Source of the DNA: an uncultured bacterium
GTDB taxonomy: Bacteria > Bacillota_I > Bacilli_A > RF39 > UBA660
Length of the DNA: 64,000 nt
Direction of reading: 5' to 3'
NCBI GenBank assembly: GCA_949296705.1
Contig: CASFOW010000042.1
Location: forward strand, 25,096-89,095
Under the pieces are notes generated by a model that worked only from the letters and a program-made list of their open reading frames with translations, was not told the DNA's origin and searched no databases. A program made the translations under genes and the position numbers. This document shows, piece by piece, positions 1 to 15,723 of this stretch (position 1 is its first letter; each line of letters starts with the position of its first letter).

Positions 1-510
1 AGTTAAATTTCTAATTCCTAAGATGTAGGCTCCACCACTAGCGATATTATTAATTATCATTGTACTACCATCTGATGAACTAGGGACTGCTTGTTGCTGA
101 GTAAGATTGTTGCCGCCACTCGGACTACTATCTAACTGTTGTAAATGAGCGACGTCTCGATAAGTATTTGGATTATTTAATAGATAATTTACTCCATCTA
201 GATTAGTTGTGAAATTATAAATCCCCATTGAAATCATTTTAGATAGAAATTGAGGGGCTAAGCACTCAGGCGTATCAGGCAAAAGAATAATAATCTTTTC
301 CACATCTAAAGCCATAGACAGCTTTTGAAGATTTCTGATGTCATGATAGTCTTTCAATGCTGTTAAATCCAGAATCATTCTACCGAAGAAAAAATTACTA
401 AACATTTGAACTAATTCATCGGCATTAAATACCCCATGAATAGATTTGATTACTTCTATATCTAAATTGGCAAGCTCCGCTTGTCTTTCATTGGATATAA
501 TTACATTCAT
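1..510 (-). CDS. Partial CDS, running off the window start. Hypothetical protein with a receiver-like N-terminal region, possibly TadZ/CpaE-like.
   Basis: Minus-strand ORF starts at ATG 510 with RBS GGTGGTGAG 6 nt upstream and has no stop before position 1. It begins MNVIISNERQAELANLDIEVIKSIHGVFNADELVQMFS...EKIIILLPDTPE...GIYNF. The D/D/K spacing loosely resembles a degenerate receiver domain. No Walker A motif was seen in the available part. It is the last visible gene of the Tad-like operon. Confidence 0.3.
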   Translation of the reverse strand, partial: MNVIISNERQAELANLDIEVIKSIHGVFNADELVQMFSNFFFGRMILDLTALKDYHDIRNLQKLSMALDVEKIIILLPDTPECLAPQFLSKMISMGIYNFTTNLDGVNYLLNNPNTYRDVAHLQQLDSSPSGGNNLTQQQAVPSSSDGSTMIINNIASGGAYILGIRNLT

Positions 511-534: not shown

Positions 535-1056
535 TTAAGAATGCCTTGCATTTCTACATAATTCACTGTTATTTCCTGATGAATAAATGGTATCTGTCTC
601 CCCAGTTATCACTAAAAAATTCGCGGCAGCCGGAAAAATCCTATTGATAATTGGTATGTTTACATTAACAAAAGTAGCCACAGCATACTGAGCTCCTTTG
701 TAAGTCAAATTAGAATTATTAGTACCAGTCACATCAGCTAATTCGCATTTTACACAAAAGACAAACTTTTCGCCACTTTCTAAGGTCTGAACATATGGTT
801 CATACCCCATTCTACGACATTTATCTTCATAAATACTAGTAGAAGAAAAAGAGTAATTTAAGCGATTGGCGTAATCATCAATTTTGTCACTGGCACTAGG
901 CGTTAATCCCTCATATTGTTCAATGATTGTTATCAATTGGTTCTTCATATGAAAAGACTTTGTGTAGCTGACACTAAACATCAAAAGTCCTATCATTAAT
1001 ACTAAAAAAACAAATATAGCCTGAAAAGACAAAACACCACCTAATGCTTCTTTCAC
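535..1056 (-). CDS. TadE-like pseudopilin / minor pilin, paralog 1 (173 aa)
   Basis: N-terminus MKEALGG/VLSFQAIFVFLVLMIGLL has a short polar leader, Gly and a hydrophobic helix, like a class III prepilin. Size is typical of the TadE/TadF family. About 35% identity to the adjacent paralog with conserved Cys positions (C..GY, FCxKCE). Located in the Tad-like operon. Confidence 0.5.
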   Translation of the reverse strand: MKEALGGVLSFQAIFVFLVLMIGLLMFSVSYTKSFHMKNQLITIIEQYEGLTPSASDKIDDYANRLNYSFSSTSIYEDKCRRMGYEPYVQTLESGEKFVFCVKCELADVTGTNNSNLTYKGAQYAVATFVNVNIPIINRIFPAAANFLVITGETDTIYSSGNNSELCRNARHS

Positions 1057-1074
1057 GGTATCACCTACTTTACC

Positions 1075-1596
1075 CTATCTTCTCGAATTGCAGAACTCAC
1101 TTGCTTCTTTTGCATGGACATCAGAATAAATCAATGGTGTTTCTCCTGCTATTTTGAAAAAACTAGCGGTAAATGGCAAAATATTATTAACTAGTGGAAC
1201 ATCAAAAGTAACAAAAGTTACAATTGAATAATAGGCGGCTCTACTTCTATCATCATCATTGGGCCTACCTGTAATATCTGCATATTCACATTTGATACAA
1301 AAGCGAACTCCATTTCCATTTTCACTAGTTTTTCCATTATAGACATCATACCCCATTTGTTCGCAAACCGATTCATATTCAGCAGGTAAGAAATAATTCA
1401 TTCCACGAACAACGTCATTTATTTCATGACGTGCTTCTACTGACAATCCCTCATGCTTTTCAATAATATTACGTATTTCGTTTTTTACTCGAAAAGCTTT
1501 TGTATAATTGACAGAAAAAGCCAGTAAACAAGTAATGATTATCATCGCAACAACAATTGCCTGTAATACAAATACGCCACCTACTCCTTCTTTCAA
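1075..1596 (-). CDS. TadE-like pseudopilin / minor pilin, paralog 2 (173 aa)
   Basis: N-terminus MKEGVGG/VFVLQAIVVAMIIITCLL. Tandem paralog of 535..1056 with the same architecture and conserved cysteines. Confidence 0.5.
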   Translation of the reverse strand: MKEGVGGVFVLQAIVVAMIIITCLLAFSVNYTKAFRVKNEIRNIIEKHEGLSVEARHEINDVVRGMNYFLPAEYESVCEQMGYDVYNGKTSENGNGVRFCIKCEYADITGRPNDDDRSRAAYYSIVTFVTFDVPLVNNILPFTASFFKIAGETPLIYSDVHAKEASEFCNSRR

Positions 1597-1654
1597 ACTA
1601 CCACCGCTTTTCTTCTTTTATCTTATTTTTATTTACTATCTACTAGAGTAATGA

Positions 1655-1858
1655 CTAGCCACTAACACAACTTGTACCATTATAGTATTGCCCAGCTGGA
1701 CAGTTTACATCTTGACCGGCATTACCGCTAATTGTATTCCAAGTATCTGTAATCGTATTAGAAATAGTTGGCCACATTACCCAGAAAAAGGCAACAATCG
1801 CTCCTATCGCAATAATTGTTACAACGGTCATATTTAATTCACCAGTTGCTTCTTTCAT
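1655..1858 (-). CDS. Flp-family-like small pilin (67 aa)
   Basis: 67-aa protein MKEATG/ELNMTVVTIIAIGAIVAFFWVMW has a short leader, Gly and a single hydrophobic helix, with size typical of Flp pilins. It shares the MKEaxG leader with the two TadE-like proteins. It lies immediately downstream of tadC in the operon. The sequence does not fit the canonical G/xxxxEY motif. Confidence 0.45.
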   Translation of the reverse strand: MKEATGELNMTVVTIIAIGAIVAFFWVMWPTISNTITDTWNTISGNAGQDVNCPAGQYYNGTSCVSG

Positions 1859-1921
1859 AAATTATCTCCTCCTTATAATAATATTATAGCATAATTTTCA
1901 TTACCTGCATAGTTCTTTACG

Positions 1922-2707
1922 TTAAAGATTTGTAAACATGTAAATCATCGCTATTAGAATCAGAACCATAACACCAGCACCAGTCGCTACTAACATAACC
2001 ATAGTTTGTCCTTCCATATGCTCGATTCTTTCTTTGTATTTTTGATCTCTTGCCTTAGCTTGTAAATTAGATACTGTTCTAGAAAACATTAATAAACGTT
2101 CCTGTTTTCTTTCTTGGGAACCTAATCCTAAACGATATAGTAATCTCATCATTCTCATTGAATCACGAACTGGATACTGATTAGCAAAATCCATATAAGG
2201 CTGAATACTAGAATCGCCTGCATCAATTTTTGCAATCATTTCTCTAAGTCCTGGTTTAAATACATCCGGTGCTTCCGGAATTGATTTAGCTAGCGCAACT
2301 GGCACAGTATAGTGCTGTACTAAGATTTCTAATCCCTTTAAATAGTATGGCAACATGACATCAATTTCATGTAAGTGACGTTTATAGTATTTCTTTAAAT
2401 TTGTATATTCTATCTTATATACAAAGTAACCAACTAAAATCGATAACACAATATTAATTAATGATAATTCAGTTAAAAAAACAAAAAGAAAAATAACAAT
2501 AACTAAACCACCATTTTTTAATCGTTTGGCAAATATCTCATCTGGTGTTTTTTTATCCCCATAACGAGCAGCTACTAGAAACTCAAAATCATCTTCTTTT
2601 AATTTATCTAATAGCATCTTATTATCTTGAATAAACTTTTCACCATCAATATTTCGATTATATACTAAGATAAATACAAAAATTGCACCAACAATAAATA
2701 TTTCCAT
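1922..2707 (-). CDS. tadC: TadC-like pilus assembly membrane protein (T2SS-F domain)
   Basis: 261-aa polytopic membrane protein immediately downstream of a TadB-like gene with start/stop overlap at 2707. The order ATPase-TadB-TadC is canonical for Tad loci. Confidence 0.55.
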   Translation of the reverse strand: MEIFIVGAIFVFILVYNRNIDGEKFIQDNKMLLDKLKEDDFEFLVAARYGDKKTPDEIFAKRLKNGGLVIVIFLFVFLTELSLINIVLSILVGYFVYKIEYTNLKKYYKRHLHEIDVMLPYYLKGLEILVQHYTVPVALAKSIPEAPDVFKPGLREMIAKIDAGDSSIQPYMDFANQYPVRDSMRMMRLLYRLGLGSQERKQERLLMFSRTVSNLQAKARDQKYKERIEHMEGQTMVMLVATGAGVMVLILIAMIYMFTNL

Positions 2708-3600
2708 TATTCTTCACCCACATTCTCATTGTAAAACTTCTCACCCTTGAGTAGGAAGTAACTATTTACTAAGATAATACCGTGAAGAATTATCTTTACA
2801 AAGACATTATCTAACAATTGAATATAGGTATCTCTACCTAATAAATATTGAATTAGCATTACCATCAGATATAGCATAATTCCATATTTTAAGAATCCTT
2901 TATGAAAATTTGCTCTTTCCATACGGTCACGGTATACACTTTCTACTAGCATATCGATGTCTAGTTGCATGTTATCTAAAGATTCTCCAGAGTCTCTAGC
3001 TCCTTCTTTGGTAATTTGTAAAAATAATTGATGCATATTTTTAACAATATAATATGGATACTTGGTAGTCATAAATTCGATGGATTCATCGATAGATCCA
3101 TTCTGATAAGCTAGAGAAATCATTAAATCAACATCACTTAGTACAGGATCTTCTAAGACACCTGATGCAACAACACCTTCTAGAGCTTTTACGAAACTTT
3201 GTGTAGTTGCGAACTCCATAATTGTATTTGTCGTATAGATTTGAATTTGTTCAAAGATAAATTCGCTATAAACCCTTTTGCATCTTAGATAAGCAAGATA
3301 AGGAATCGTCATATCTAAGGCAATAATATAGATTACTGAAATCAATATATTATAGAAATATAGATAAGAAATAACTCCGGCAAAAATAGAAAAAGTTACT
3401 ACTTGAATCATATATTGTCTCGGAGTGTATTCTTGCCCTAAATCCTTTGTTTTCTGGCGAATAACTTTAAAGGAATACGGAGCAAAACGATTATACATGT
3501 TCGTTGCTTGTAACGTAATAAAGTGATAGACATTTTGTCCTTTATATTTACGGTAAAAAAGTATAAATAGCGCTATGGCTAATAGAATTAATAATTCCAC
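2707..3600 (-). CDS. tadB: TadB-like pilus assembly membrane protein (T2SS-F domain)
   Basis: 297-aa protein with N-terminal and C-terminal TM segments flanking a cytoplasmic helical domain. It directly follows the CpaF ATPase gene. Confidence 0.55.
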   Translation of the reverse strand: MELLILLAIALFILFYRKYKGQNVYHFITLQATNMYNRFAPYSFKVIRQKTKDLGQEYTPRQYMIQVVTFSIFAGVISYLYFYNILISVIYIIALDMTIPYLAYLRCKRVYSEFIFEQIQIYTTNTIMEFATTQSFVKALEGVVASGVLEDPVLSDVDLMISLAYQNGSIDESIEFMTTKYPYYIVKNMHQLFLQITKEGARDSGESLDNMQLDIDMLVESVYRDRMERANFHKGFLKYGIMLYLMVMLIQYLLGRDTYIQLLDNVFVKIILHGIILVNSYFLLKGEKFYNENVGEE

Positions 3601-3620: not shown

Positions 3621-5099
3621 TTAATTGTTGTTAAAATCCACGATGATTGGTTGAGTTTGATTCACTGTTGGATTTCCCCCTTGAGTTATACCACTACTAG
3701 TTGGTTGCAGTATAGCTTGTCCTAATGTCTGTGTTACTGGCTGTTGTTCGTGTGGTGGAGTTAAAGTTGTCGTTGAACTCTGGGAAGGAGTCGAAATCGG
3801 ATTAGGATTCGGTGTTGGAGCTACTGGTACATTGCCAACAGGATTAGAAACTGATGGTACTGGACTAGATACTGGTGTAATTGTTTCTTTTCTTTCCAAG
3901 GAAGCATTCACTGTCTCTGTTTGTTTGGATATATTATCTCCTGCGGTAGGAACTTTTACATTCTCTACCTTAGGAGATTCTAAATTTGTCGTTGGATTCT
4001 CCCCAATCACATCTTCCAATTTTATTCCCCCATCTTCTTCTTCCGCTCCTTCAAAAGTAGTTGATTCTAGTTCAACATTTTGTGCTAATAGTGAATCGAT
4101 CAAATGCTGACTAGGATTTTTCTTAATAATCTTTCCATTCATTAGTTTCTGATATAAAACATTGTAGACTGGTTTATTATTATCATCGATATAGAATTCC
4201 GTAATTTCATCAATTTCACGATGAAATTTTCCATATTTCTTACTATAGTAAGCTTTAATATGAACGCCTAATTGAACATAACGATAGATCGTACTTAAGA
4301 ATTGATCAACATCTAGTTCTGTTTCCATTAAAGAATACATACGATGTGGAATTGCACTTGCTTTATCTGAGTGGATTGTCGATAAAATATTATGTCCTGA
4401 AGAAATAGAGTTACGAACGGCACTTACAGCTTCGGCACTACGGACTTCTGACAAAAGAATCCATTTAGGGTTCTGTCTCATACAAGTAACTAATACATCA
4501 CTATAAGAAGCGATATTATTAGTTTTCATTGCGACAATATCACGATGTGGATAAATCTTATCTAAGTGTAATTCCAAGGTATCCTCAATCGTAATGATTT
4601 TTTCACTTTCTTTAGTATGGGATGCTAGATATTTGACAAATTCAGTTTTACCTGAACCTGTTTCTCCACAGACGATGATATTACAATGTCCATGAACGCA
4701 TTTAATTAAGAAATCATGAATATCTTTGGTTACATAATCTTCTTTTAATAACGTTTCTTCTTTTAATCGTATCTTAGCTGGTGTCTTACGAATAACTAAC
4801 GCAATTCCGTTAGTTGCAATTGATTCATGGACGAAATTCATACGTAACTCTGGACTTTCCGCATCAAGGAAAGGGCTAGCATTATTGAAAGTTGTCCCCA
4901 TAACGTTGGAACATTGAAAAGCTAACTTTTCTACTACACTATTATTAATGGCGGGATTTTCTACTCTAAGTGAACCTTGGGTTAAAGAACGAATCCAAAT
5001 TTGTCCATTATTCGTGTATGAGATATCGGTGATATCATCATTTTCGATATACTCTCTAAAAGCCCCAAAATCTAATTGTTCAAATAGGTTATCTTTCAT
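3621..5099 (-). CDS. cpaF: CpaF/TadA-family secretion ATPase with a C-terminal Pro/Thr/Ser-rich tail
   Basis: Walker A CGETGSGKTE and the family-typical segment VTCMRQNPKWILLSEVRSAEA, plus a His box. The core of about 350 aa is followed by about 130 aa of low complexity (PVSSPVPSVSNPVGNVPVAPTPNPNPISTPSQSSTTTLTPP...). Confidence 0.85.
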   Translation of the reverse strand: MKDNLFEQLDFGAFREYIENDDITDISYTNNGQIWIRSLTQGSLRVENPAINNSVVEKLAFQCSNVMGTTFNNASPFLDAESPELRMNFVHESIATNGIALVIRKTPAKIRLKEETLLKEDYVTKDIHDFLIKCVHGHCNIIVCGETGSGKTEFVKYLASHTKESEKIITIEDTLELHLDKIYPHRDIVAMKTNNIASYSDVLVTCMRQNPKWILLSEVRSAEAVSAVRNSISSGHNILSTIHSDKASAIPHRMYSLMETELDVDQFLSTIYRYVQLGVHIKAYYSKKYGKFHREIDEITEFYIDDNNKPVYNVLYQKLMNGKIIKKNPSQHLIDSLLAQNVELESTTFEGAEEEDGGIKLEDVIGENPTTNLESPKVENVKVPTAGDNISKQTETVNASLERKETITPVSSPVPSVSNPVGNVPVAPTPNPNPISTPSQSSTTTLTPPHEQQPVTQTLGQAILQPTSSGITQGGNPTVNQTQPIIVDFNNN

Positions 5100-5118: not shown

Positions 5119-5958
5119 TTACTCTGTTGGTAATGGTGCGGGATTTTCTAAATCCAAATCAGTAAACTCAGTTACTTCGTTAATAAAGTCACGTAATGTT
5201 TCACTAGCAATACTTACCTCACCTGGTTCTTCTTTTAGTGATTCATTCGTTGGTACTGGGATAATAGCAACTTCATAAGTACGTAAATATCCAGCCTTTC
5301 TTAATAGAATATGATATTCTTCTGGTAAAGCGAAGATAATTTGTGATGGTGTTTTAACGTTTTCTAAGTCTTCGAATACATCATCACCATTTGAATCTAA
5401 TACCGCAAGAATTTTTACATTCTTTAATAGTTTACCAACCATAATTTTATCTTCAGTATCTGCGGTAATATTTTCTTCATCTACTTTATTGGTTGCTTTA
5501 ATATAGATATCAATATAGTTTCCAGGATAGATCTTGTTACCATAAGTTGTTTCCGTTGTAACGGCTAAGTTCATTAAGACATAATCATCTGGATAGTCAT
5601 ATAGTATTGAATCTGGCAACTCTGATTGGGTAACTACTGCTCTTTGATAGAATAAGCTACCTTGTGGGATTGTGCAATCTGCATTAACATAGTAATTAAT
5701 AATTTTACTAGTGTCAGTAATAACATCTCCCTGTACCATAGCCATTGGTACATCCACGATACCAACCATATCGCTAGTAATTCTTGTTCTAGAAGAAATA
5801 TCTACTAAGGCGTAAGGTACACTAGTTGGATTGGTTTTTTGACTAATTCTGTAATTGTAGAAAAAATACAAGACGACAATTGCGATAACAGTCAAGATTA
5901 TCGTAACTGTATTTTTGTTTGTTAAGAACTTCTTTACTCTGGTTCCTACTCCATTCAT
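5119..5958 (-). CDS. cpaB: CpaB/RcpC-like Flp pilus assembly protein
   Basis: N-terminal TM anchor (TVTIILTVIAIVVLYFFY) followed by a region resembling a SAF domain (ALVDISSRTRITSDMVGIVDVPMAMVQGDVI). It sits immediately upstream of cpaF, as in Tad loci. Confidence 0.55.
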   Translation of the reverse strand: MNGVGTRVKKFLTNKNTVTIILTVIAIVVLYFFYNYRISQKTNPTSVPYALVDISSRTRITSDMVGIVDVPMAMVQGDVITDTSKIINYYVNADCTIPQGSLFYQRAVVTQSELPDSILYDYPDDYVLMNLAVTTETTYGNKIYPGNYIDIYIKATNKVDEENITADTEDKIMVGKLLKNVKILAVLDSNGDDVFEDLENVKTPSQIIFALPEEYHILLRKAGYLRTYEVAIIPVPTNESLKEEPGEVSIASETLRDFINEVTEFTDLDLENPAPLPTE

Positions 5959-5970
5959 TATTTTCCCCTC

Positions 5971-6399
5971 CTACTCAACTTCTTCAATCTTTCTTTTTTC
6001 ATTATATTTTGTTTCTAATATACCATCAATCGTCGTTACGATATCGAAATCTTCGCCAACAAAAGAGGCAACTGTTGTCGTTCCTACTTGGATACTTGCT
6101 TTTGGTGGTGTTTCATTGAAGTCAATAATCTTGATTCGATAGGTAGAAGATGCAGAAACGCTGTCTGCAAATCTTCTAATAAAACTCTCTAAGAATTTTT
6201 CTCTATCTACTCGTATAATTCCACCGGATGTACGATAATATCCCCAATCGACGCCGTCAATCATTGCTGCTTCAGTTGTTTCTTTCAATAAGTAATAATC
6301 TAATTCGTTACCCGATTGATAGTTTTGAATTAAATTTACACAGGCTAGAGTTAATACTCCTAAGATTATAATTCCTGTAATGATCATTCCTTTACTCAT
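5971..6399 (-). CDS. Small membrane-anchored protein, possible minor pilin/pseudopilin
   Basis: 142 aa, N-terminus MSKG/MIITGIIILGVLTLA with one hydrophobic helix then a soluble domain. Context is between the cysteine-rich protein and cpaB. Confidence 0.35.
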   Translation of the reverse strand: MSKGMIITGIIILGVLTLACVNLIQNYQSGNELDYYLLKETTEAAMIDGVDWGYYRTSGGIIRVDREKFLESFIRRFADSVSASSTYRIKIIDFNETPPKASIQVGTTTVASFVGEDFDIVTTIDGILETKYNEKRKIEEVE

Positions 6400-9459: not shown

Positions 9460-10263
9460 TTATCCAATTTCTGATGCAGCACCTTCTGCTAACATGTTAA
9501 AGTTTTTACTTTTCGTTACCTTATACTTCTCAATTTCTTCGTCATCTCTCACTTTACGTGCATCGATTACAAATTGTTGTTTCTCAAAAGCGCCAAAATA
9601 TCTAGTACATGTTTTAACAGCAATCAATTCATCATTTTCATTTACATCAATATCATAATCATAGATTGAATTATCGCGCACACTAGCAATATAATCTTTG
9701 ATTTGTTCAGGATTACTCATGCTTCTGTCATTATCTCCTGCATAATCATAGAATCCAATCGCATAAATTTTATAAAGTTCTTCTTTTCCTTCTTTGGTAT
9801 AACTGATATACAAATTATCCTGCGCAAAATCATAATAGGTAAAAGCCATCAAGCCTTCAAAATAATTTAACATGCTCATATCACGAATCGGTGTACTGGA
9901 CACATTAATAATATTATGACCATGTATAACTTCTCTAGTTTCATCGGTATCGTATTCCGAGCTACGCCACGCATAATCAGATATACCATCATCACCATAA
10001 TCAAAGCTATTCAAAACCGCCATATCAATGTTTGTACCTTGTACTTGAATCCAACCAACAGTATAAAAATCTTCATATTTAAATTCTAGGGAATCCTGAG
10101 TTCGATCTTTAAAATTCAAAGTGATACTTGTATCAAACTTACTACCCGTTATACTGAAATAAATAATGGCTATAATTAATACGATAATAACCAAAATGCT
10201 TATTGTAATTAACATTCTCTTTTTTAGATCTAGTCTCTTGTTTTTTGACTTTCTCTTTCTCAT
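9460..10263 (-). CDS. srtB: Class B sortase-family transpeptidase
   Basis: N-terminal signal-anchor. Sequence FYTVGWIQVQGTNIDMAVLNS matches SrtB DIVGWIKLSGTSLNYPVLQG. His motif VIHGHN, Cys motif LIAVKTCTRY (TLxTC-like) and Arg motif FVIDARKV give the His/Cys/Arg catalytic triad in the canonical order. Confidence 0.7.
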   Translation of the reverse strand: MRKRKSKNKRLDLKKRMLITISILVIIVLIIAIIYFSITGSKFDTSITLNFKDRTQDSLEFKYEDFYTVGWIQVQGTNIDMAVLNSFDYGDDGISDYAWRSSEYDTDETREVIHGHNIINVSSTPIRDMSMLNYFEGLMAFTYYDFAQDNLYISYTKEGKEELYKIYAIGFYDYAGDNDRSMSNPEQIKDYIASVRDNSIYDYDIDVNENDELIAVKTCTRYFGAFEKQQFVIDARKVRDDEEIEKYKVTKSKNFNMLAEGAASEIG

Positions 10264-10278
10264 TAGTTATCACTTCCT

Positions 10279-12120
10279 TTACTGCAATAAATATGGATCG
10301 TTCATTGTACCTTTTCCTGATCTTATTTTTAAATTGCCATTCACATGCATCACTACTTTAACTGAAAATTCAGGGAAATTATCATTTGTTAATTCAAATG
10401 ACATTCCTGTTACTACATTCATCATGATTACCATATTTTCTCCTGTAGAACGATCTAAGAATAGTTGAATACGTTGTCCACTATAAGGACTACCACTTAC
10501 ACTAGCAAACAAATCAATCGTTGATGCCAACATCAGTTTTGCTTCTACTTTTTCTGTTTCTAAATCATTATATTTCGTGCTAGGACTATTTGTAATAATC
10601 TCATATTCATAAGGAATAATATTACTGTCATCTAAGTATTCAATATAATCTTCATTAAGTATGTATCCTGGATTATTTTCATCAGTTAAGTTATATTGAT
10701 AATTTGGAATATCAGAAGTAGAGACAGTTAGAACTCTGTTATCACTAATATTTAGTAGCGGATGAGCGCCGATTACTTTAACACTACCGTCTTTCTCTTG
10801 ACCAATAATTCTAAATAATTGTCCTGAATAAGAAATATATTCACCAACCAACCTGTTTTTTATTTCCTCGTGTTCTTCTCCGTACTGATAATCATTTAAT
10901 TTATAAGGATTTTCTTTCGTTCCATCCCCTTCATAAATATAAAGACCATTTTTTATCGTAATGACCGGCTTAATTGGCAAAATATTCAAATTGCTCGTTA
11001 GACTAGCAGTTCTACGCTCAGTAATTATTAAATTTTCATTCTCACGCTTATTGGCAAGCAAATAATAATAATTATTCCAATAATTCATCGAACTGTAACT
11101 ATTTTCTACTGTCTTATAGTATTCGTCTAGGCTAGGTAATCCCACTTTAGCCGTTACTGTCTCACTACAGCTACTATTAATATCATCTACACTATTTACT
11201 GCGCCAACACAATAGGTAGTATCGACTAAATATTTATCTGGATTTGTTAAACTATTGTAGAAAACATTATTTAACCAAGCTTCGACATTAGAATCCTTAT
11301 ATCCAGTACTATCATATCTAAGATTACTGACGACATCTTCACTGATTAATTTTACGTTACCATTTTCATCAACATTGATAATACGCCATAACATACCAGA
11401 AAATTGAACATAGTTGTCTTCTACTTGTCCTTTATAGTAATTGCTTTCATCGGTTTCACTAGCTACTGTTTCTGAAAAATTTCTAGCTACTGTTACCGTT
11501 CTCGTCACTTTGGTTTGATTATGAGTACTATCTTTTACTTTATAGATTACTTCATAACTACCTACTTTACTAGTATCTACTTTACTGGTATCCACAGTTA
11601 CCTTAGAAATATCTATCTCTCCATCTACATTATCAATAACTTTTTTAACCCCTGGATCTTCATAAGTACTATTGTGGCTAATGATCATATTTTCTTCGCC
11701 ATTTAACTCGATTTTTGGTCCTTCGTGGTCGATATCGGATTCATATTTGCCACATTTTAGATAAGTATAATACTGATATTCTCCATCTTCGGTTTGTACT
11801 ACTCTAACCCAGCTTGAAGTATCACATAATTTTTTGGTCTTAGGTACATATAGAGCCTCTACTCTATTTTCTAAAAACATCTTTTCTAGTGAGATTTCTC
11901 TACTTTCTCCCTTACCTGGTAATAATTCTTGACGATACTCATAGTAACGTTTAACCGCATCTAGGAAAATTTGTTCTTCTTGTTTGAAAATTTCAATTTT
12001 TGATAGCCAGAATACCCATAGAAGATATCCAAGCAGGAATAAGAATAAACTAAGCGCAATCAATATTCCTACCGCTTTTAAGTATTTATTTCTTAGAAAC
12101 CAAGCTTTTACTTTTTCCAT
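10279..12120 (-). CDS. Signal-anchored large extracytoplasmic protein (613 aa), function unknown
   Basis: N-terminal TM segment AVGILIALSLFLFLLGYLLWVFWL followed by about 560 aa of predicted extracellular sequence. No recognisable catalytic motifs. Second gene of the operon. Confidence 0.6.
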   Translation of the reverse strand: MEKVKAWFLRNKYLKAVGILIALSLFLFLLGYLLWVFWLSKIEIFKQEEQIFLDAVKRYYEYRQELLPGKGESREISLEKMFLENRVEALYVPKTKKLCDTSSWVRVVQTEDGEYQYYTYLKCGKYESDIDHEGPKIELNGEENMIISHNSTYEDPGVKKVIDNVDGEIDISKVTVDTSKVDTSKVGSYEVIYKVKDSTHNQTKVTRTVTVARNFSETVASETDESNYYKGQVEDNYVQFSGMLWRIINVDENGNVKLISEDVVSNLRYDSTGYKDSNVEAWLNNVFYNSLTNPDKYLVDTTYCVGAVNSVDDINSSCSETVTAKVGLPSLDEYYKTVENSYSSMNYWNNYYYLLANKRENENLIITERRTASLTSNLNILPIKPVITIKNGLYIYEGDGTKENPYKLNDYQYGEEHEEIKNRLVGEYISYSGQLFRIIGQEKDGSVKVIGAHPLLNISDNRVLTVSTSDIPNYQYNLTDENNPGYILNEDYIEYLDDSNIIPYEYEIITNSPSTKYNDLETEKVEAKLMLASTIDLFASVSGSPYSGQRIQLFLDRSTGENMVIMMNVVTGMSFELTNDNFPEFSVKVVMHVNGNLKIRSGKGTMNDPYLLQ

Positions 12121-12123
12121 AAT

Positions 12124-13683
12124 CTATTCTCCTTTTAATTGATAAAAATATTGATAAGTTCTAACTGTAAAGTATAGTTCTATATTAGTCGCATTTACCA
12201 TCTCACTAGGTGCTGCGATAAATAAATGATCTCCACGATAATTCGTTAGTAGATAAGAAATATTCATCTCTTTTGTCTCTCCATTTATGGTATAGCGTAT
12301 CTTTCCATAAGTTTTTAAAAAATCGAGAAAATCCTTTTTGCTTCCTTCTTTTAATTTATATTTTGCGTAGAAAATCACTTGATTTTCTTTACTTTCTAGG
12401 GTCGCCTCATAGATAGGACAAGTTTTAGCATTACATTGTTCATAACGATAATCCATCGCATTCGTTAACGCAAAATTAGATAGGCTAAATGTCCATTCTT
12501 TCTCTAAATTGATAGGAACAGTTAACTCTTCGCCGAGAGAGACATTGGCTTTTTCAATAAATTTACTGATATCTCTTACCTGAACCCGAATTCTTTTGGC
12601 GGCATCATTAAATTTACCAGTTCGATAAGTTAATAAAAAGTTACTGTTTTCTTTTGGGGCATCAATCTCAAAAACAAATAAAATATTTTCACTACTAGAA
12701 GCTTTAATTTTCTTACCACTACTATAAAGCGTACCAATATCATTAAAATATAAATTGAATCTTTCAGAAGGGGTATACTGTTGATTATCTATATATAAGA
12801 AGAAATATTCATTACTGATTGGAACATCACTAGTTTGATCATTGGTAATTTTTACATCCAAGATAAAATAGTATTTACTTTTTGCAATTTGATTTCCGGT
12901 ATAATCACGATTAGTGATATAGGCATTCTCTATTTGGAATTTAAGTCCATTTGCGGATACTGCTTCTCCCATACTGTATACTTTATTGACTACAAAAGCA
13001 TAGTGATAGACATTAAATGAAGCTAATAACACAACCAAAACAATTAAAATACTAATACTAAACTTGTGTTCTAAAAAGGTATATTTTATATAACGAAGAT
13101 TTCTTCTAAAGGCTCTAATATAACGATCTTTATCAAAAGTAATCTCTACTTCTACTTCTTCACGATCTTCGTCGTTAATTTCTGCGAATTCTTTGTCTTC
13201 TCCAAATCCAAATCTCTTTAAGTCTAGACCTATGGAACGGATAAGTAATAATAAAATAGCTGGATAATAGGGAATAGTGACAATAAAAGATAAATCTCGA
13301 ATCGTTAACGCAGATACTAAATCAAACTCCTGTGTTACCGTTATCGTAAAGTAATAATAATGATAAATAAAGAAGGCTAACGTGATAATTGATACACCTA
13401 AGATAAATACATAGGAAATAAATGGTTTATCCTTATATTTTAGTAAATAAGCTAAGATTGCGGAAATAATAGTAATCAGTACAATAGCGCCAATAGAAAA
13501 AATATTTACATAGTTACTTATGGAATCTAATTGACTACTATAAATACCGGTTGCGATATAATCTTTTATGAATTGATATAATTCTAATTCTTTCCATAAA
13601 ACAAAAATAACTAGAGCGAGTAAGACTATATTGATTTTCTTAAAGTTACGAATTAAAAAGGCATATGGCTTTCTTAGAATCAC
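12124..13683 (-). CDS. Polytopic membrane protein with a large C-terminal extracytoplasmic domain (519 aa), function unknown
   Basis: GTG start with RBS AGGAGGGG. About 4 TM helices at the N-terminus, an acidic cytoplasmic loop (EINDEDREEVEVE), a further TM, then a soluble domain of about 300 aa. First gene of the operon. Confidence 0.6.
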   Translation of the reverse strand: MILRKPYAFLIRNFKKINIVLLALVIFVLWKELELYQFIKDYIATGIYSSQLDSISNYVNIFSIGAIVLITIISAILAYLLKYKDKPFISYVFILGVSIITLAFFIYHYYYFTITVTQEFDLVSALTIRDLSFIVTIPYYPAILLLLIRSIGLDLKRFGFGEDKEFAEINDEDREEVEVEITFDKDRYIRAFRRNLRYIKYTFLEHKFSISILIVLVVLLASFNVYHYAFVVNKVYSMGEAVSANGLKFQIENAYITNRDYTGNQIAKSKYYFILDVKITNDQTSDVPISNEYFFLYIDNQQYTPSERFNLYFNDIGTLYSSGKKIKASSSENILFVFEIDAPKENSNFLLTYRTGKFNDAAKRIRVQVRDISKFIEKANVSLGEELTVPINLEKEWTFSLSNFALTNAMDYRYEQCNAKTCPIYEATLESKENQVIFYAKYKLKEGSKKDFLDFLKTYGKIRYTINGETKEMNISYLLTNYRGDHLFIAAPSEMVNATNIELYFTVRTYQYFYQLKGE

Positions 13684-13795: not shown

Positions 13796-14269
13796 ATGAA
13801 AAAATTTAGTTTTATTATTATCTTAGTTGCTCTTTTATTGGTTAGTGGGTGTTCTAAGAGTTATTTAAAAGAAATTTCTTATGATGAATACAAAAAACTA
13901 TTAGAAGATGAGGAAACTTTTATTTTGGAGGTAATGAGTGATGATTGTACGGCTTGTAAAGATTTTCGTCCGAAATTAAAAGATGTTGCTTCTAGTTACA
14001 AAATTGAAGTAAAGTATATCAATATTGATAAGTTAACTGCTGATCAATACGATGAACTTGCTGTTTCAGCAACGCCTACTGTGATTTTTTATATAGATGG
14101 TGAAGAGGAAACAACAGCCGCAAGAATTGTTGGATCAGTAAAAAGAGAAAAGATTATTTCTAAGTTTAAGGCTAGTGGGTTTATTGAAGATGAGGCTTCA
14201 GATCAATCTAATGAAAAAGATAACTCTGTTGAACAAGACGAGCAACAAGAGAAAAACACTTCAAAATAA
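13796..14269 (+). CDS. Thioredoxin-fold lipoprotein with a CxxC motif
   Basis: Lipobox LLVSGC. CTAC (CxxC) motif in DDCTACKDF, with a Trx-like fold pattern (ATPTVIFYIDGEE). Acidic C-terminal tail. Divergently transcribed from the Tad-like operon. Confidence 0.7.
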   Translation: MKKFSFIIILVALLLVSGCSKSYLKEISYDEYKKLLEDEETFILEVMSDDCTACKDFRPKLKDVASSYKIEVKYINIDKLTADQYDELAVSATPTVIFYIDGEEETTAARIVGSVKREKIISKFKASGFIEDEASDQSNEKDNSVEQDEQQEKNTSK

Positions 14270-14295
14270 AAAAGTAGGATTTCCTACTTAGTTTT
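14268..14295. terminator. Bidirectional rho-independent terminator
   Basis: Hairpin AGTAGGA-TT-TCCTACT, T-run on plus strand (TAGTTTT) and A-run upstream. It lies between convergent genes. Confidence 0.55.
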
Positions 14296-15723
14296 AAATA
14301 AATAATATTCATCAGTACTGAAGAGAAGATCATACTTCTCTTTTTCTTGCTGTAAATATGGGTATAAGACATCATTTGGGGCGACAATAAAGTGAGTAAA
14401 ATGGTAAGTGTTAATAAATTTATCTAGTGATAATTGTCCCTTTTGTAGGTTGTAATACTCCTGAAAGATATCTTTTTGATGATTATTTCGTTTTAAAAAC
14501 ACTTCGGCTCTAGAATCAATATACGTCTTTAAACCTCGGTATTCAACATATCCTCCTTCAGAGAAACCCGTATATAAAATAACTTGGTTCTTATCATAGT
14601 GTGATAATAAGTAATCGATAGTGGTTTTTAATGGATTGGTTAGCTCGTGGGGTAAAAAGATAAGAAGTGTTAGCATTAAACCAAATAGAAAAGTAATTAC
14701 TCGTTGCTGATATGCTGTTTTTTTTATTGTTGATATTGGAAGCTGGGGAAAATGCTCCTTTATACAATAGATTAATGGGAGTAATCCACCTAAAAGAAAG
14801 AAAGCAAAACCCTTGTATGAAGAAAGTGCTAAATAGGTTGTACCCAAAAGCAAGCACAAATATTTTAATTTTATCTTTCTTTTTTTAGAAACTAGATAAA
14901 TTATATAAACAGTTAAAACGACAGTATAAATGATTACTCCCATTCGTGTTGCCAATTGTGGTACTTGCATTTCTTGTACAAGGGCATTGATACTAGTATA
15001 TCCATAAGAGGTGAAAATATAAGTAATGGCAGCGATTCCATAGGGATTAAAAAGGCCTGCTAGAAACATCAATATGATACTAGTGTATAATGGTAGTATT
15101 CTTTTTAATTTTCTTTGCTGATAATCTTGAATGGTCATTTCAATGGTATACGGAAGCAAAAATAGAAATAACATGAACCACATTGAAGCGTGTAAATTGA
15201 TTTCTAAGAGAGACAGTAATGGTAAGAACAACAGATATTGTTTTTTTCTAGTTTGTTGATATTTTTCTAATGTGTAGATTAAAATTAATAGAATTAAGTA
15301 AGTAAAAACTTGAGGACGAGTTTGAATAAAATTCATTAATAATAAGCCATCGACTAAAATAGCAAAGAAAATGGATAAATTACGGCGATTATCACTAATC
15401 ACTAGACATATTTTATACAAAAAATACAAAATAAAAAGATTTATTGTGATAATAAGTAAGGATAATCCAAAGCCACCTAACCAATGATAGACTTCGTAAA
15501 AAATAGTAGCAGCTAGATGTTGTTGCATAACAAAGTCTAATCCTTCATGAATAGTAAAAGGCTCCATATAAGGAATACCATGAGTTACTACATATCTACC
15601 CTGATTAAGTAAAAACCAAATGTCATTATCATAACTAGTACTTACGATAATAGATACGGCAAAAGGAATAAAAAAATAGAGATAGGCATATTTAGTAGGT
15701 AAAGAAAAAAACTTTTTTTTCAT
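14284..15723 (-). CDS. Polytopic membrane protein (479 aa), possibly a GT-C-type glycosyltransferase
   Basis: At least 10 predicted TM helices with a soluble C-terminal domain. The architecture resembles GT-C/YfhO-like enzymes. No diagnostic motif was confirmed. Confidence 0.45.
   Translation of the reverse strand: MKKKFFSLPTKYAYLYFFIPFAVSIIVSTSYDNDIWFLLNQGRYVVTHGIPYMEPFTIHEGLDFVMQQHLAATIFYEVYHWLGGFGLSLLIITINLFILYFLYKICLVISDNRRNLSIFFAILVDGLLLMNFIQTRPQVFTYLILLILIYTLEKYQQTRKKQYLLFLPLLSLLEINLHASMWFMLFLFLLPYTIEMTIQDYQQRKLKRILPLYTSIILMFLAGLFNPYGIAAITYIFTSYGYTSINALVQEMQVPQLATRMGVIIYTVVLTVYIIYLVSKKRKIKLKYLCLLLGTTYLALSSYKGFAFFLLGGLLPLIYCIKEHFPQLPISTIKKTAYQQRVITFLFGLMLTLLIFLPHELTNPLKTTIDYLLSHYDKNQVILYTGFSEGGYVEYRGLKTYIDSRAEVFLKRNNHQKDIFQEYYNLQKGQLSLDKFINTYHFTHFIVAPNDVLYPYLQQEKEKYDLLFSTDEYYLFKTK

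Follow-up and report, generated by a model that had tools for sequence, protein, structure and literature searches.

Small pilin-like proteins with a conserved Gly-ended leader in a Tad-like module beside a type IV secretion system of uncultured gut Bacilli

Three pilin-like genes and their leader

The stretch of DNA analysed here (64,000 nucleotides, hereafter the window; contig CASFOW010000042.1, positions 25,096 to 89,095) comes from an uncultured bacterium (GTDB lineage Bacillota_I; Bacilli_A; RF39; UBA660) and is chromosomal, as it encodes PolC, DnaE, Ddl, MurF and a PASTA kinase. Near its start, between positions 535 and 1858 of the minus strand, lie three small open reading frames (ORFs), here called p67, p173a and p173b, which the original prediction had described as pilin-like and whose N-termini read as it had given them. 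Other short, overlapping ORFs on either strand of this region are unsupported and were treated as spurious.

1655–1858, minus strand: p67, 67 amino acids (aa), ATG start; Flp-sized pilin-like protein and putative major subunit, with the leader MKEATG, Glu7, a hydrophobic helix and a C53–C64 hairpin
1075–1596, minus strand: p173a, 173 aa, TTG start; minor-pilin-like protein with the leader MKEGVGG and Gln12, preceded by a weaker GGTGGT Shine-Dalgarno sequence
535–1056, minus strand: p173b, 173 aa, GTG start; tandem paralogue of p173a with the leader MKEALGG
1866–1874, minus strand: Shine-Dalgarno sequence of p67, AAGGAGGAG; strong, with a spacer of 7 nt to the ATG, read from the sequence

Related loci were collected by a scan with a p173 alignment, taking one genome per GTDB species, from which the best 80 of 243 confirmed loci were kept; surveys of flanking genes covered 86 related loci with about 10 kb of flank each. 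The closest locus (L001, DVKF01000051.1) shows 98% identity and lies on a contig of 'Candidatus Scybalousia intestinigallinarum', and the remaining loci come from metagenome-assembled genomes of uncultured gut 'Bacilli' or 'Tenericutes'. A search of 1.84 billion cluster representatives with p173 returned 1408 relatives at E ≤ 1e-3, 939 of them at E ≤ 1e-10, and a tblastn search of known plasmids and phages returned no relatives of p173. The p173 leader was described from a clade set of 125 distinct N-termini and from a wider set made up of the 147 most similar of the 1408 cluster representatives.

The start sites are fixed across these genomes. An ATG, GTG or TTG codon falls exactly at the Met-Lys/Arg position in 81 of 81 p67 orthologues, with a Shine-Dalgarno-like element upstream in 78 of them, and a start codon falls at the same position in 86 of 86 p173 orthologues, with such an element in 85; both p173 genes of the window have a weaker, GGTG-type Shine-Dalgarno sequence at a spacing like that of p67. 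The leader codons vary synonymously (GCA/GCG, ACT/ACA/ACC/ACG, GGT/GGA/GGG) while the encoded amino acids stay constant, so that, given the fixed starts as well, the leaders are translated and under purifying selection. Start sites and leader are kept in about 80 species of uncultured gut Bacilli. The 63-nt gap that separates p67 from the 261-aa gene also contains an extended −10-like element, TGCTATAAT (1883–1891, minus strand), some 25 nt before the p67 start. It could supply p67 with its own promoter; it has no −35 element and hence did not appear in a consensus scan.

In the clade set the p173 leader reads M-[RK]-[DE]-A-[IFLVM]-[GS]-[G>>Q,S,N], position 6 being Gly in 102 and Ser in 22 sequences and position 7 being Gly in 117 of 125, and this leader is retained in the wider set. 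It is followed by about 21 hydrophobic residues (8–28) and then by a highly conserved A-F-S-V-N-Y-T-K-A-F-R-V-K-N segment. The p67 leader, M-K-[EAD]-A-[TSMN]-G-E, continues as -[LM]-[NSQ]-[MLI]-[TA]-V; wherever the N-terminus of an orthologue lies on its contig, G6 and E7 are there, and M1, K2, A4, G6 and E7 are invariant in the alignment. Over 82 orthologues the N-terminal half of p67 is invariant and its C-terminal 25–40 residues are hypervariable, frequently with a Cys pair. The leaders of 6–7 residues ending in Gly that were first seen in the window, each followed by a hydrophobic helix of about 22 residues, are therefore a feature conserved across species. When the p67 and p173 families were compared with hhalign, only the first eight residues could be aligned; the leader is therefore a shared signal on otherwise unrelated proteins, as would be expected of a common processing or recognition signal.

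A near-invariant Gly at the junction with a hydrophobic helix is the hallmark of class III signals, and both p67 and p173 have the short Gly-ending leader followed by some 20 hydrophobic residues that defines this class. In p67 the sequence is G6/E-L-N-M-T-V, so that Glu stands at +1 and Thr at +5, and it has neither G/xxxxEY nor Tyr6; the original prediction had pointed to this Glu directly after the Gly, and we find it to be invariant. The two p173 copies of the window (G7/VFVLQA and G7/VLSFQA) lack G/xxxxE[FY] as well and, provided that cleavage follows G7, carry Gln at +5 where class III pilins usually have Glu. That substitution, also noted in the original prediction, stands for the window copies under this proviso; at the level of the clade the canonical G-x4-[Q/E] register is kept, with Gln at position 12 (+5 after G7) in 60%, Glu in 13% and other residues in 27% of the sequences, and with a TadE-like 'EF' in 10 of 125.

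The two p173 paralogues are 42% identical (BLASTP E 4e-48), somewhat more than the 35% or so first estimated, and four cysteines align between them (C78, C100, C103 and C169 in the numbering of the upstream copy). The tandem duplication with conserved Cys that had been proposed is present in the window; across species it is limited to the Scybalousia-like subclade (L001–L004 and L019), most species having a single copy, and a distant group of loci has two p67 and two p173 genes. In AlphaFold2 models, p67 is a single helix (10–50) followed by the C53–C64 beta hairpin (pLDDT 80), with no globular domain, so that in size (within 50–80 aa) and build it is Flp-like, and p173a is a continuous helix (3–47), after which come two short helices and a sheet of four strands (pLDDT 77, pTM 0.72).

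The ATPase module and its type IV secretion neighbour

The three genes belong to a long operon that has the following further features in the window, continued beyond the window start by genes seen in related loci.

1–510, minus strand: 5' part of the gene for a 335-aa cytoplasmic protein, always found after p173 (full length at 11087–12094 of L001)
1922–2707, minus strand: 261-aa polytopic membrane protein with four predicted transmembrane (TM) segments; TadC-like by position and topology only
2707–3600, minus strand: 297-aa polytopic membrane protein with five predicted TM segments; TadB-like by position and topology only
3621–5099, minus strand: 492-aa secretion ATPase of the FlaI/CpaF/VirB11 group (PF00437, T2SSE, E 1.2e-26)
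5119–5958, minus strand: 279-aa CpaB/RcpC-like bitopic protein (PF16976 RcpC, E 1.7e-5; TIGR03177 CpaB, E 6e-8; both below cutoff)
5971–6399, minus strand: 142-aa DUF5411 protein (PF17424, E 4e-46), N-terminus MSK[G/A] and a TM helix
6412–9402, minus strand: secreted protein of 996 aa, rich in Cys, with a Sec signal peptide but without known domains; syntenic in most loci
9460–10263, minus strand: 267-aa class-B-sortase-like protein (TIGR03064, E 1.9e-8, below cutoff)
10279–13683, minus strand: operon head of two genes, encoding proteins of 613 aa (surface Ig-like and DUF6273) and 519 aa (five TM segments and DUF4352); syntenic in many loci
[quoted passage not shown]

Read 5' to 3' on the minus strand, the operon encodes proteins of 519, 613, 267 and 996 aa, DUF5411, the CpaB/RcpC-like protein, the ATPase, the 297- and 261-aa proteins, p67, p173a, p173b and the 335-aa protein, and this gene order is kept in the species loci. 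p67 and p173 thus adjoin a T2SSE ATPase and two polytopic proteins with the position and topology of TadB and TadC, for which there is no T2SSF match. The ATPase module lies directly upstream in 63 of the 64 species loci with at least 7 kb available on that side, the only loci used for this count. Downstream, where the complete Gram-positive-type T4SS gene set begins (12168–18525 of L001, and also in L014–L080), VirB4/VirB6 genes are found in 52 of 61 species loci, and the 335-aa and 113-aa T4SS_pilin-like genes follow p173 in 72 of 72 loci. The pilin module is one half of a conserved chromosomal supercluster and the T4SS is the other, a membership of the p67/p173 genes that the earlier reading of the window had missed. 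No relaxase or coupling protein (VirD4) was seen in the chromosomal loci within flanks of up to 10 kb.

This neighbourhood could also mean that p67 and p173 are components of the T4SS channel, similar to VirB8, VirB3 or TcpD and unrelated to type IV filaments, and that the ATPase is a VirB11. p67 and p173 do adjoin the T4SS in most loci; among sub-cutoff NCBIfam matches of the ATPase to VirB11 and TadA-family models, VirB11 is the best (E 4.8e-34); and the homologue on pAW63, a plasmid of the Bacillus cereus group, has been annotated as VirB11 (PMC1196294). On the other hand, a pair of platform-like polytopic proteins, a CpaB/RcpC-like protein and DUF5411 are not part of VirB11 systems, in nine loci the ATPase module stands with p67 and p173 while VirB4/VirB6 are absent within 8.5 kb downstream, and a fold search found no VirB8-like match, the NTF2-like fold of VirB8, TcpC and PrgL being absent. 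The best PDB matches of the ATPase are FlaI (3.5e-18), CpaF (1.1e-17) and VirB11 (1.9e-16). We consider a role in the T4SS channel quite improbable.

The same two-module arrangement is found on conjugative plasmids. The VirB4-like protein has full-length relatives on 2603 Gram-positive plasmids, with about 28% identity among the matches listed. One of these, pBMB68 of B. thuringiensis (NZ_CP010581.1, 9706–39064 of the record; our locus L087), is typed as conjugative with a MOBP relaxase and carries both modules on one replicon. Its T4SS module encodes a MobP3 relaxase, a VirD4-like protein, a T4SS_pilin-like protein, TrbL, PrgI, a 227-aa protein, VirB4 and an NlpC/P60 protein, and its second block encodes an 861-aa protein, DUF5411, a SAF/RcpC protein, a ParA-like ATPase, a T2SSE ATPase and membrane proteins of 316 and 297 aa, ending with proteins of 115 aa, 129 aa (DUF4320) and 129 aa. 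Direct pairwise comparison between window and plasmid gave 124 bits for the ATPase, 90 for the CpaB-like, 60 for the TraC-like and 262 for the VirB4 protein, with 40 bits between the 297-aa protein of the window and the 316-aa protein of the plasmid and 34 bits between the 261-aa and 297-aa proteins, so that both modules are homologous to pBMB68 tra genes, which favours the reading as a conjugation-type system.

The tra regions of pBMB68, pAW63, pXO2 and pBT9727 resemble our loci in DUF5411, the CpaB/SAF protein, the T2SSE ATPase, the two membrane proteins of about 300 aa and the small proteins, with the T4SS alongside on pBMB68. For pAW63 this layout is read from the published gene table only, where 'VirB11' is followed by proteins of 278, 250, 121, 84 and 100 aa (PMC1196294). 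Unlike the chromosomal loci with the flanks available, the plasmids have a relaxase and VirD4, and their block lacks the sortase-like gene. The small proteins of pBMB68 differ as well: the 115-aa protein and the DUF4320 protein, which starts MSEAVQY, have no MKEAxG motif and no Gly-ended leader, and they show no detectable homology to p67 or p173 in pairwise comparison or with hhalign (17–19%). Searches for distant Clostridial relatives by way of DUF5411 and DUF4320 returned close homologues only. A 2022 review of conjugation in the B. cereus group does not mention pili (PMC9673590).

On balance, we lean towards p67 and p173 being divergent pilins of a conjugation-type Tad-like module. In such a module, p67 would be the Flp-sized major subunit and p173a and p173b duplicated minor, pseudopilin-like subunits, all inserted in the membrane with the N-terminus inside and the C-terminus outside. 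An aspartic prepilin peptidase of the A24 type, its gene lying in another part of the genome, would cut the leader M-K/R-D/E-A-x-G(-G) after Gly, leaving mature N-termini that begin E-L-N-M-T in p67 and V-F-x-L-Q in p173, where the canonical Glu5 would be replaced by Glu at +1 or by Gln or variable residues, respectively. The FlaI/CpaF-like ATPase and the two polytopic platform-like proteins would then pull the subunits out of the membrane and assemble them into a polymer. Judging by analogy, the filament would most likely serve cell-cell or surface contact for the neighbouring T4SS, because the two-module layout recurs on the conjugative pBMB68 and in the pAW63 gene table.

Several neighbours of the pilin-like genes deserve brief description. 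The DUF5411 orthologues all begin M-[SN]-[KR]-[GA] and continue into a TM helix; since this second, different short leader also ends in Gly or Ala, DUF5411 may itself be a further pilin-like subunit, and the protein is also found in CpaF+PilC operons of Clostridia (PMC9523054). The 996-aa Cys-rich protein may be a tip adhesin. In the sortase-like protein, His116 and Cys219 (TCTR) are conserved in 51 sequences, and none of the proteins encoded next to it has an LPXTG-type sorting signal at its C-terminus. This enzyme was considered as the one that cuts the 'EATG/E' leader and ruled out by topology: the Cys pairs lie in the C-terminal, external part of the pilin-like proteins and the leader is therefore cytoplasmic, whereas the sortase domain is external. 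By eye only, the 335-aa protein looks receiver-like in its N-terminal half and shows a degenerate Walker A motif (DHAGAT), features that recall a TadZ/ParA-type protein; it has no Pfam or PDB match. No match was found in Pfam or the PDB for the 297-aa protein, or in Pfam, NCBIfam or the PDB for the 261-aa protein, and the idea that the two are paralogues of each other found no support (probability 15%).

Two further genes lie beside the operon. Adjacent to the operon head and divergent from it, a gene at 13796–14269 (plus strand) encodes a thioredoxin-fold lipoprotein that weakly matches the TraF conjugation family and could form the disulfides of Cys-containing exported proteins. A polytopic protein of 460–480 aa (14284–15723, minus strand), with a weak GT87 match in L081, is possibly a glycosyltransferase linked to the pilin genes; in several other species its gene separates p67 from the 261-aa gene and lies on the opposite strand (L018 8274–9653, minus strand; L081 6951–9682, minus strand).

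Pilin families, leader cleavage and competing explanations

Family profiles from Pfam and NCBIfam were compared with the three window proteins, 29 p67 orthologues and 23 + 140 p173 relatives. Flp/Fap (PF04964) had no match at E ≤ 10 to p67 of the window or to the 29 orthologues, and TadE (PF07811) was never matched by p173. N_methyl (PF07963) gave no match, and its motif G-[FMILV]-[ST]-L-[IVL]-E is found nowhere in the window. DUF4320 (PF14208) did not match p173 in Pfam and reached only 17–19% probability with hhalign, so that p173 cannot be called a DUF4320 homologue. The lack of TadE or Flp similarity is a result that the original prediction had itself named in advance as one that would count against it; what we found instead were sub-threshold matches, namely to archaeal Pilin_N (PF07790) in 3 of 29 p67 orthologues (residues 5–46, best 19.1 bits against a cutoff of 25.2) and to Tad (PF13400) in 4 of 23 and 5 of 140 p173 relatives, the latter at a level equal to that of unrelated TM families. 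These hints and the Glu at +5 in some of the p173 clade agree with one another in pointing towards pilins.

PDB sequence searches with profiles of p67 and p173 gave no meaningful match, and structure searches with the pilin-like proteins gave weak pilin matches only. A resemblance of p67 to the C-terminal TM segment of the T4SS_pilin-like protein ('K-x-A-T-S-K-L') was set aside as chance (probability 5.5%). Membership of Flp, TadE or N_methyl is thus not established, and it is by architecture and context that the proteins are assigned as pilins: the term 'pilin-like' is upheld by the Gly-ended leader, the hydrophobic stretch, the long helix of the models and the ATPase module, and finds no backing in profile similarity.

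The original prediction had also stated that the operon encodes no peptidase, and this extends well beyond the operon. No ORF of the window has an A24-type GxGD motif, the stricter GxGD[K/R] pattern gave a single match in 80 loci, in a non-membrane protein, and, once known families were removed, the 10-kb surroundings of 86 loci contained no further conserved ORF with at least three TM segments. Nor is there a protease motif in the TM domain of the 519-aa protein from the operon head. From this absence a divergent prepilin-peptidase specificity had been proposed. The main determinant of PilD cleavage is Gly at −1, and that Gly is retained here. The local absence of a peptidase is normal in other pilus systems, the mannose-sensitive haemagglutinin (MSH) loci having none and tadV being at times a 'loner' encoded apart (PMC6668835), and a divergent specificity is therefore not implied. 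On one related contig an N_methyl protein is encoded 9 kb away, so that this organism, at least, probably has a PilD/ComC-type enzyme. We infer that the leader is cleaved, after G6 or G7, and that p67 and p173 polymerise and function as pilins.

Could the hydrophobic segment be an ordinary Sec signal, at least in p173? Signal peptidase I would then cut at A-F-S|V-N-Y and release soluble proteins beginning VNYTKAFRVKN, which would fit the −3/−1 rule (of the p173 members, 89% have Ala at position 26 and about 77% have Ser, Ala, Thr or Gly at position 28) and would place the highly conserved segment right after the cut. At the same time, Asn stands at −1 in 20% of the members, the n-region is strictly conserved, unlike that of Sec signals, and has a net charge of 0 in 93%, atypical for Gram-positive Sec signals, the helix 3–47 of the model runs continuously and confidently through the putative site, and p67 has the same leader with no AxA-type site after its helix. 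Of all the explanations considered we hold this one least likely; for the original prediction, an ordinary Sec signal with an AxA site would have been contrary evidence.

Several results weigh against p67 and p173 being pilins. Besides the missing matches to Flp, TadE, N_methyl and DUF4320, the two platform-like proteins and the 335-aa protein lack detectable T2SSF or TadZ similarity, and no A24 peptidase is encoded in the window or any locus surveyed. Prepilin leaders are typically basic, and in 93% of p173-family members the leader has a net charge of 0. Position 12 (+5) is unconserved in the wider p173 family (147 of 1408), and in two loci (L077 and L081) p67 and p173 stand beside T4SS genes with no ATPase module within 10 kb.

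Much of this would suit an explanation in which p67 and p173 are uncleaved, signal-anchored components of a type IV filament machine or of the T4SS (a stator, scaffold or adaptor), M-K-E-A-x-G being a docking motif for the ATPase or platform and no filament being made. It would account for a charge-neutral leader, for the lack of E5 and of a conserved +5 residue, and for the absence of a peptidase from 86 loci and of any prepilin peptidase annotation from pBMB68, whose positional counterparts (115 aa and DUF4320) also lack a Gly-ended leader; moreover, p67, p173 and the 335-aa gene form a trio contiguous with the T4SS_pilin-like gene in all 72 loci, sometimes without an adjacent ATPase module. 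What speaks for pilins instead is the near-invariant Gly at the helix junction, the pilin-like conservation of p67, whose N-terminal half is invariant and whose exposed C-terminal half is hypervariable, and the strong Shine-Dalgarno sequence of p67 compared with the weak ones of p173, which suggests an abundant structural subunit. Linkage is also tighter to the ATPase module (63/64) than to VirB4/VirB6 (52/61). We regard the uncleaved component as doubtful, though far less so than the T4SS-channel and Sec alternatives, and keep to divergent pilins as the preferred reading.

Comparison with known systems

The system is most like the Tad/Flp (type IVc) pilus without p67 and p173 being members of the Flp or TadE families. 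As in the Tad/Flp pili of Aggregatibacter and Caulobacter, genes for a CpaF-type ATPase and two membrane proteins are directly followed by those for a tiny helical major subunit and for larger minor ones, there is a CpaB/RcpC-like protein, and the p173 clade has the G-x4-[Q/E] register. In contrast to those pili, profiles of Flp, TadE and T2SSF find no match, p67 lacks Tyr6 and carries Glu at +1 but not at +5, the locus has no TadV and, in a monoderm organism, no secretin, and the module is joined to a T4SS and a sortase-like gene. Flp leaders are long and end in K-D-E-x-G, whereas the leader here has 6–7 residues and is charge-neutral.

Closer in habitat are the Tad-like cluster of TANB77, a clade of uncultured gut bacteria (PMC11680825), and the operon with CpaF+PilC+DUF5411 known from Roseburia, Ruminococcus and Eubacterium (PMC9523054), likewise from gut Firmicutes, which have CpaB, TadZ, TadA and TadB/C-type machinery followed by single-TM proteins of 140–240 aa that have no sequence or structural homologues and were called pilins from context and topology; the Clostridia operon also shares DUF5411. 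These precedents of pilin-like proteins that escape homology searches support the reading of p67 and p173 as pilins, and they mean that the general phenomenon is already known. Compared by their descriptions, both clusters belong to another lineage (ours being Bacilli), the MK[DE]AxG leader and the 67-aa subunit are undescribed there, and linkage to a T4SS or sortase is unreported (PMC11680825; PMC9523054).

A likeness to archaeal pilins, both Epd (EppA-dependent) and other type IV pilins, is seen in the short subunits without Glu5 and in the sub-threshold Pilin_N match of p67. EppA substrates have a conserved polar residue at +1, Gln, where p67 has Glu. The host here is bacterial, the leader sequence is different and no EppA- or FlaK-type peptidase was found nearby. 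Tad systems have been proposed to derive from Epd-like systems (PMC6668835).

What is new here is the defined MK[DE]AxG leader, the invariant +1 Glu of the 67-aa subunit, the size of the p173 family, which comprises at least 1408 sequence clusters and has no Pfam model, and the consistent coupling of a filament module to a Gram-positive T4SS on plasmids and chromosomes alike. To our knowledge, Gram-positive conjugation is generally described as pilus-free, and we know of no role assigned so far to the 'VirB11' block of pAW63/pXO2-type plasmids; reading this block as a Tad-like filament module with pilin-like subunits gives a testable hypothesis for how these T4SSs make cell contact. The leader, as MK[DE]AxG-E/G, is a natural test case for which class III features are needed for cleavage and which for assembly, and it can serve as a search motif by which such subunits are annotated in metagenomes of the gut, an environment in which host effects have already been tied to Tad-like pilins of uncultured Firmicutes (PMC11680825).

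More speculatively, a whole class of Gram-positive conjugation-type T4SSs, comprising those of pAW63/pXO2/pBMB68 plasmids and the vertically conserved chromosomal loci of gut Bacilli, might build a type IV filament from non-canonical pilins that have a minimal MK[DE]AxG leader and an N-terminal Glu in place of Glu5, and whose processing would fall to a housekeeping or as yet unknown peptidase or would not occur. We think this generalisation unlikely to hold. If it did, the new amino terminus could be neutralised or cyclised by the N-terminal Glu, monoderm bacteria would have in this filament their missing 'conjugative pilus', and the apparatus of the gut lineage, with no relaxase or coupling protein seen in the available flanks, may have been domesticated for adhesion or contact-dependent transfer.

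A last observation concerns the source of the DNA. The NCBI taxonomy places the genus Candidatus Scybalousia under Bacteroidales, yet related records are labelled Bacilli, and the entry appears inconsistent; the window itself shows traits typical of Bacillota, namely PolC, 31% GC, strong Shine-Dalgarno sites and the PASTA kinase and Mur genes.

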